Positions 5,385 through 5,977 of a DNA stretch of 5,977 nt are shown here, one piece after another. The notes under the pieces were generated by a model. The model did not search any database, had not been told where the DNA came from, and saw nothing but the letters and a program-made list of their open reading frames with translations. This DNA is from a virus (lineage: Duplodnaviria > Heunggongvirae > Uroviricota > Caudoviricetes): IMG/VR virus record IMGVR_UViG_2627853869_000001; one strand, written 5' to 3'. A program made the position numbers and the translations under genes. Every line of letters begins with the position of its first letter. Within the stretch, counting starts at the first letter, position 1.

Positions 5385-5424
5385 TGAACCGCTCCGGGTT
5401 TCCTGGAGAGTGTTTTATCTGTGA
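5385..5424. repeat. Right terminal inverted repeat of the IS3-family element
   Basis: The IS terminus sits immediately 3' of the OrfB stop (5427-5429). The exact inner boundary of the repeat is uncertain because the other end is outside the window. Confidence 0.5.
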
Positions 5425-5426
5425 AC

Positions 5427-5977
5427 TCAGGCTGCCAGATCATCGTTTCCGATGGAAGCATAATAAGCTTTTTCTGCTTCTGCCGGTGGGATATGGCCCT
5501 GCCTTTCCAGCAATCGTCGATTGTTATACCAGTCCACCCACGTGAGTGTGGCCAGTTCCACTTCTGCACGGTTTTTCCAGCTCTTACGGTGTATTACCTC
5601 CGCTTTGTAAAGACCATTGATGCTCTCCGCCATCGCGTTGTCATACGAGTCGCCTGTACTTCCTGTTGATGCCAGTAATCCGGCTTCCTTAAGCCGCTGT
5701 GTGTAGGCCAGCGATACATACTGAGAACCTTTATCACTGTGATGGACCGTGCCGGACGGTCGACGGGCCCATAACGCCTGCTCCAGAGCATCCAGCACGA
5801 ATGTCGTTTCCATGGACGATGAGACCCGCCACCCCACGATGTATCCGGCAAACACATCAATGATGAACGCCACATAGACGAAGCCCTGCCATGTGCTGAC
5901 GTAAGTAAAATCAGCCACCCACAGCTGGTCAGGTCGTTCTGCCACGAACTGACGGTTTACGCGGTCGCCTGCGGCAA
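5427..5977 (-). CDS. IS3-family transposase OrfB (DDE integrase catalytic domain), partial; N-terminus beyond window end
   Basis: Translation …[127 protein letters not shown]… shows the D…D…E catalytic-core pattern of IS3 OrfB. The frame is open to the window end, and the GTG at 5945 listed by the track is not the true start. Confidence 0.85.

Follow-up and report, generated by a model that had tools for sequence, protein, structure and literature searches.

IS629 is a member of the IS3 group within the IS3 family of insertion sequences and was originally reported from Shigella sonnei (Matsutani and Ohtsubo 1990, cited in PMC3271280). IS1203 and IS3411 are isoforms of IS629, and a Shigella-type subgroup is recognised as well (PMC3271280). 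In E. coli O157:H7, 62% of the IS629 copies are located within prophages, and insertion is accompanied by target duplications of 3–4 bp (PMC3271280). For the replication genes of lambdoid prophages, the O gene of phage lambda with the origin iterons inside the gene (ori-lambda) serves as the reference system.

In this study, we analysed a stretch of 5,977 bp (the window), which is the entire contig AMJZ01000112.1 of the draft assembly GCA_000815685.1 of Shigella boydii. In all probability, a Shigella-type IS629 of 1,310 bp has transposed into codon 260 of the lambda-O-like initiator gene of an S. boydii lambdoid prophage in the course of ordinary IS expansion. The features of the window are compiled in Table 1; numbers such as L008 denote the loci and contigs used for comparison.

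Table 1. Features of the 5,977-bp window around the insertion site
Feature	Position	Strand	Remarks
Initiator gene, 5′ part (codons 1–259 plus 1 nt of 321)	4607–5384	+	100% identical to the E. coli 55989 DNA for WP_000054487.1 up to 5384; phrog_391
Five tandem 23-nt iterons, core GGTCAAAATG, putative origin	4951–5066		Spacings of 23, 23, 23 and 24 nt (repeat search)
A-rich 12-nt repeats (CTACAGAGAATA-type) adjoining the iterons	5070–5108		Repeat search
ACA, left copy of the 3-bp target-site duplication	5382–5384		Window GCCACA/TGAACCGC; intact allele GCCACA/GACAAATTTG
Right-hand 593 bp of a 1,310-bp IS629-type element of the IS3 family	5385–5977	-	Transposase gene antisense to the initiator; element cut short by the contig end
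Terminal inverted repeat (IRR end) TGAACCGCTCCGGGTTTCCTGGAGA	5385–5409		In L004:1501-2810, a full-length relative, 23 of 25 nt agree between the two ends
53 IS-encoded codons plus stop, in frame with the truncated initiator	5385–5545	+	Chimeric ORF 4607–5545, 312 aa
orfB, 3′ part (last 182 codons plus stop), catalytic DDE core	5427–5977	-	Pfam rve, NF033516

Junctions and identity of the insertion sequence

The terminus TGAACCGC begins at exactly position 5385, so that at 5384/5385 a prophage gene gives way to the right end of an IS3-family element. For comparison, positions 4553–5977 were searched by megablast against 5,426 complete E. coli genomes. The part from 4553 to 5384 (query positions 1–832) was 100% identical to E. 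coli prophage DNA, the prophages matching at this level being many Rac/Qin-like ones, and homology stopped at 5384. The part from 5385 to 5977 aligned with IS3-family transposase DNA over its full length (100% coverage), its first base included, at 99.0–99.5% identity; such matches were present in 4179 of the 5426 genomes, the genomes concerned having a median of 4 places each. An uninterrupted allele is present in E. coli 55989, reading ...GAAGCCACA/GACAAATTTG... across the site. Thereby, the proposal of the earlier note that an IS terminus at 5385 interrupts an O-like open reading frame after about 259 codons was borne out, and the comparison with prophages free of the insertion, which it had recommended, provided the intact initiator allele of E. 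coli 55989.

The same junction occurs in contigs of at least 20 other assemblies and is therefore not a chance feature. Positions 1–5392 of the window are 100% identical to the left-hand contigs of at least 20 samples, all of which stop at 5392, one base before a T/C variant at 5393. The window itself ends at 5977 because short-read assemblers break in a multi-copy IS repeat, and in the interior of the IS, the bases of a short-read contig may derive from other copies of the element. Draft assemblies can mis-join at repeats, and with a contig ending in a repeat, a false join of a prophage contig to a multi-copy IS has to be considered. Such an artefact is hardly credible here, as the identical junction was assembled independently from at least 20 samples, the reciprocal junction with a 3-bp duplication exists, and the chimeric protein encoded across the junction is on record for two S. 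boydii sequences. The junction pattern was absent from a contig collection holding one genome per species (exact-pattern scan). No complete E. coli genome carried the same junction, the nearest case being that of strain MFDS1019527 with an independent insertion 10 bp downstream. A non-exhaustive search of the literature did not yield a published description of this insertion.

The translation of the orfB part contains the Pfam domain rve (E 5.7e-28) in addition to rve_3 and rve_2, and reaches 217 bits with the NCBIfam model NF033516 'IS3 family transposase' (cut-off 160); the D...D(35)E spacing is evident from the translation itself. The ends of the element are imperfect inverted repeats of the form 5′-TG...CA-3′, with TGAACCGCTCCGGG... 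at the end present in the window and ...GGGGCGGTTCA at the far end, which is contained in a sister contig (L008). As the best full-length relative, the copy in NCTC11151 was identified (L004:1501-2810; 1,310 bp; 99.5% identity), whose inverted repeats start with TGAACCGCCCCGGG and in which a programmed frameshift and an AL1L pseudoknot are annotated (PGAP). Between this copy and the window, 3 of 593 positions differ, one of them being a T instead of C at 5393, inside the repeat. The doubt raised earlier that the sequence at 5385 might lack a matching inverted repeat at the other end, and thus not be an IS terminus, is removed by the full-length copies, which match there at 23 of 25 nt. Joined with the sister contig, the window gives a composite of 1,310 bp with an open orfA (108 aa) and an open orfB in the −1 frame, while the 593 bp of the window alone contain neither orfA nor the frameshift site.

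The element is 99.0–99.2% identical to copies on the virulence plasmids of S. dysenteriae, S. boydii and S. flexneri: the pCP301 copies, deposited as 'IS629 ORF2', reach 99.0%, and the S. dysenteriae and S. boydii plasmid copies 99.2%. With the IS1203 copy of E. coli O111 it shares 95.4% identity, and it is therefore assigned to the Shigella-type IS629 rather than to IS1203. These plasmid matches, one of them deposited under the name IS629 ORF2, together with the rve and NF033516 assignments, agree with the resemblance to the IS629/IS3411 group pointed out in the earlier note for this IS3-family element.

Inside the terminal repeat, the plus strand contains at 5392–5408 a terminator-like hairpin, CTCCGGGTTTCCTGGAG, with an adjoining T-rich stretch (AGTGTTTTAT), identified solely as a consensus match. 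The hairpin is oriented towards transcription arriving from the initiator gene, and owing to the T at 5393, a T-A pair replaces a C-A mismatch in it.

The window could not be extended, since the contig ends inside the IS, and the proposal to recover the other IS end in this way could not be followed; the end was obtained from a sister assembly instead. In the sister contig L008 (GCA_014014195.1), whose first bases belong to the IS, the sequence is ...GGATTCCCGGGGCGGTTCA/ACA/GACAAATTTGTGAAATG..., or in short form GCGGTTCA/ACA/GACAAATTTG at the right junction. ACA is thus present on both sides of the IS, and the target duplication therefore comprises 3 bp, in line with the 3–4 bp expected earlier. 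The duplication was reconstructed from the left copy in the window and the right copy in the sister assembly of the same clone group, rather than within one assembly. Within the 433 nt over which the IS parts of the two contigs overlap, there is 1 difference, and the IS of the sister contig contains the two variants separating the window from the NCTC11151 copy. Over its right flank of 6.2 kb, L008 agrees at 100% identity with S. boydii contigs that have GACAAATTTG as their exact start and stem from at least 20 samples. The severed C-terminus was traced via the protein collection, where dozens of contigs are represented by 'replication protein [Shigella boydii]' entries of 57, 61 and 62 aa. 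As both the right flank of the sister contig and the left flank of the window are matched at 100% in at least 20 samples, a simple insertion common to an S. boydii clone group is concluded.

An IS can also mark the breakpoint of a deletion or rearrangement, in which case the DNA on its far side would be something other than the rest of the initiator gene. A case of this kind is known from the O111 strain E2863 (L002), where IS1203 lies in the same gene without target duplication and with unrelated DNA downstream, and the far side of the present insertion is located beyond the end of its own contig. For the S. boydii insertion, such a breakpoint is very unlikely, given that sister assemblies with 100% identical flanks contain the reciprocal junction, the ACA duplication and the remaining 62 codons, and that many S. 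boydii contigs start exactly at GACAAATTTG.

A set of contigs (L018–L023) with other alleles of the gene and different downstream genes starts at most 2 nt from the site, which raised the idea of an insertion hot spot at this exact position. The idea was dropped, since in draft assemblies the partial proteins of this gene begin and stop at numerous places, and since those independent insertions whose location could be resolved differ in position.

The interrupted initiator gene and its putative origin

The start codon ATG at 4607 is the one assigned by PGAP to the identical gene in E. coli 55989. Over its whole length, the initiator matches the PHROG family phrog_391 'replication initiation O-like' (E 3e-92), and residues 147–294 of the intact protein (148 aa) align with residues 135–270 of lambda O at 34% identity (BLASTP; E 3e-27; O taken from J02459), which substantiates the placement of the element in a lambda-O-like initiator gene. 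Intact homologues from E. coli, E. albertii, Citrobacter and Salmonella comprise 321–331 aa, so the gene has no natural end near 5385; the alternative that homologues end there on their own, at about 259 aa, is thereby refuted. Phage HannyBb, deposited as a complete genome, contains an intact copy of 321 aa with 97% identity, which is the only indirect support for an initiation activity at the gene's own origin. In the databases the intact 321-aa protein is labelled only 'hypothetical', and no Pfam family was assigned to the initiator at E≤0.01, the only match from Pfam and NCBIfam being one of 20 residues to a DnaT tail. The N-terminal domain of lambda O (Pfam Phage_rep_O) was not detected, and BLASTP gave no alignment to lambda O before residue 147; the PHROG families matched by the N-terminus are other initiator and DnaD-like ones. 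In E. coli 55989 and phage HannyBb, the initiator gene is followed by a DUF977/Ren-like gene instead of a P-like loader gene, and as far as the Q-like gene the annotations contain nothing P-, DnaC- or DnaB-like. With an N-terminus not detectably like that of lambda O and without a P-like neighbour, the protein is therefore 'O-like' by its architecture and C-terminal half, and falls short of full membership in the lambda O family. For the same lack of a lambda-P-like gene, the recruitment of a helicase loader by the C-terminal region is to be taken as an analogy with lambda.

The iterons lie at codons ~115–153 of the gene, compared with O codons 116–144 for those of lambda ori, and the adjoining A-rich repeats may be the unwinding region of the origin. 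The iterons remain intact, and the IS break lies ~320 bp farther downstream, behind codon 259; the insertion is thus situated downstream of the putative origin, as had been suggested from the sequence before.

The break occurs after codon 259 plus 1 nt (His259, aligned with His235 of lambda O), whereby residues 260–321, i.e. 62 codons, are lost. For a view of the domains affected, an AlphaFold2 model was built from 16 close homologues. Its mean pLDDT of 53 is of low confidence and allows only rough domain limits, so the boundaries are approximate. The model suggests a winged-helix-like N-terminal domain at ~14–100, a disordered linker at 109–175 that coincides with the iterons, and a helical C-terminal domain at ~183–295 followed by a disordered tail; according to it, the IS may cut the C-terminal domain roughly in half. 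The lambda-O-like C-terminal region (~183–295) is cut through, with 183–259 being kept. The statement of the earlier note that the insertion removes the C-terminal domain holds for residues 260–321, but the domain is truncated and not removed as a whole.

Among the lost residues is the block best conserved with lambda O (lambda O 236–270; FW..N..SP.KLR.KW), and the C-terminal tail is lost as well, whose terminal IPxGFRG is invariant in the family. Since both are missing, the truncated initiator would very probably be unable to start replication at its own origin, and the prophage has probably been left unable to replicate. As judged from these conserved segments, the loss of the replication function is a reasonable inference. 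Experimental work on this protein family was not found.

The tail of the intact protein deserves separate mention. Residues 301–321 (L001:5955-6017, outside the window) read VQRCVNHISEPDTEIPPGFRG and agree at 15 of 21 positions with the extreme C-terminus of DnaT, a replication-restart protein of the E. coli host. The corresponding DnaT segment was found in PDB entries 2ru8, 6aep and 9zbt_D and at positions 160–179 of NCBIfam NF002770; the initiator ends with ...VNHISEPDTEIPPGFRG and DnaT with ...VNTVSEPDSQIPPGFRG. The same tail, with 95–100% identity, terminates phage genes named 'O' or 'Primosomal protein I' that are otherwise different. In 5 of 6 tail-bearing loci inspected (55989, HannyBb, SfIV, Evi and vB_EcoS-640R1), no loader gene adjoins the initiator. 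A strict link between the tail and the lack of a loader is ruled out by phage PhiR5_2, which has the tail together with a DnaC-like gene. In the literature, no role of the DnaT tail was found, and the motif string was absent from papers in this context. Tentatively, and with less than even confidence, the tail could be viewed as a portable DnaT-mimic peptide that would link loader-less lambdoid initiators to the host DnaB/DnaC or PriA/PriB, replacing a loader of the lambda P type. If this were true, the IS insertion would remove exactly the DnaT-mimic link to the host machinery.

Origin and consequences of the insertion in S. boydii

The course of events can be outlined as follows. IS629 transposed into codon 260 of the 321-codon initiator gene, with its transposase gene in antisense orientation, and the 3-bp target ACA was duplicated in the process. 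The putative origin with its iterons and the N-terminal part of the gene remained untouched, and the last 62 codons were separated from the rest. The resulting open reading frame encodes residues 1–259 followed by 53 unrelated residues. The prophage would then be unable to replicate autonomously after induction, and the insertion would have been inherited clonally in the S. boydii lineage. In its simplest form, this outline takes the insertion as a product of the IS expansion typical of Shigella and not as a selected event.

Apart from one replaced segment (2623–3072), the contig is collinear and ungapped with the prophage of E. coli 55989. This segment, located between the DicF/dicB region and a ydfA-like gene, has no match in 55989, its flanks being 98.5–99.1% identical, and by this comparison it is a mosaic replacement. 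At 2289–2340 on the minus strand the antisense sRNA DicF was detected (Rfam RF00039; 76.7 bits, gathering score 48), situated upstream of a DicB-like ORF at 1926–2219, also on the minus strand. The prophage therefore carries a cell-division inhibition module of the dicBF type. In a sister contig (L031:2463-4277), the integrase gene directly adjoins ompW, which places the prophage at an ompW-adjacent site. Inspection of the prophage covered the left arm and the early-right region; sister contigs still contain int, xis, an exonuclease gene and the DNA as far as Q and further, and the prophage is thus not visibly wrecked around the insertion.

Further lesions were observed in the same gene of E. 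coli strains, among them three independent insertions of the IS629 group (L024, L025 and L002, from MFDS1019527, E8 and O111 E2863). In strain E8, IS1203 is located at the end of the A-rich repeats with a duplication of AAC. In strain MFDS1019527, the insertion is an IS3-family element with a duplication of CTG, located 10 bp further downstream than that of S. boydii. In O111 E2863 (L002), the IS1203 insertion in the initiator gene is associated with a downstream deletion, without duplication. In strain MP021017 (L007:5929-5949), a TGG>TGA nonsense mutation at codon 244 of the initiator leaves an ORF of 243 aa and a C-terminal ORF of 57 aa. All four insertions, including that of S. boydii, have the same orientation, but so few events give no meaningful indication of an orientation bias.

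The earlier note had regarded the insertion as a plausible domestication event that would fix the element as cryptic. In a selective reading of this proposal, the loss of the initiator would lock in a prophage with other genes of benefit to its host, namely dicB/DicF, hok, the SMEK gene, methyltransferase genes and the repressor. The fixation of the insertion across the S. boydii clone group, the independent inactivation of the same gene in several other strains (E8, MFDS1019527, O111 and MP021017) and the otherwise preserved gene order of the window relative to intact relatives would fit this idea. However, clonal inheritance explains the fixation without selection. IS629 is a multi-copy element found preferentially in prophages (PMC3271280), and repeated lesions in a common prophage gene are to be expected by chance among thousands of genomes, so that independent hits of such an element in this gene come as no surprise. 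The common orientation of the four insertions has a two-sided probability of 0.125. Beyond the insertion being common to the clone, which common descent alone explains, the domestication proposal received no support, and we consider selection of this kind improbable. The IS629 insertion in the prophage initiator gene of S. boydii is accordingly a known element in a known kind of event, namely ordinary prophage decay.

The significance of this insertion lies mostly in annotation, and the DnaT-like tail on loader-less initiators is the only wider lead. The chimeric protein deposited as 'hypothetical protein [Shigella boydii]' (WP_435369502.1; 312 aa) can be explained as the truncated initiator with read-through into IS629, and the 57–62-aa 'replication protein' fragments on other contigs as the severed initiator C-terminus. 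In addition, the insertion represents a stable clonal marker for the S. boydii lineage.

Comparison with IS629 elements and with phage lambda

The element shares with IS629, IS1203 and IS3411 the terminus TGAACCGC..., the imperfect inverted repeats of 25 nt and the length of 1,310 bp (from the composite and the relatives), as well as, in the composite, the arrangement of orfA and orfB in the −1 frame, the DDE (rve) transposase, the 3-bp duplication and the location in a prophage. It differs in that the window holds 593 of the 1,310 bp and in the copy-specific T at 5393 in the inverted repeat, the comparison having been made with deposited copies. The IS629 elements in prophages of E. coli O157:H7 and other STEC (PMC3271280; PMC10810198) belong to the same element family and have the same preference for prophages and duplications of 3–4 bp; likewise, the effect on the prophage depends on the landing site. 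Host and target gene of these cases are different from those of the S. boydii case.

With lambda O and ori-lambda, the interrupted gene has in common a homologous C-terminal half and iterons at the same relative position within the gene, followed by an A-rich stretch. As in lambda, the initiator gene follows cro-like and cII-like (YdaT) genes. In contrast to lambda O, the N-terminal DNA-binding part of the initiator is not detectably lambda-O-like, and lambda O is without the DnaT-like C-terminal tail in the alignment made. Ori-lambda contains four 18-nt iterons, whereas the initiator gene has five of 23 nt, and in intact relatives the initiator is followed by a DUF977/Ren-like gene instead of a P-like gene.
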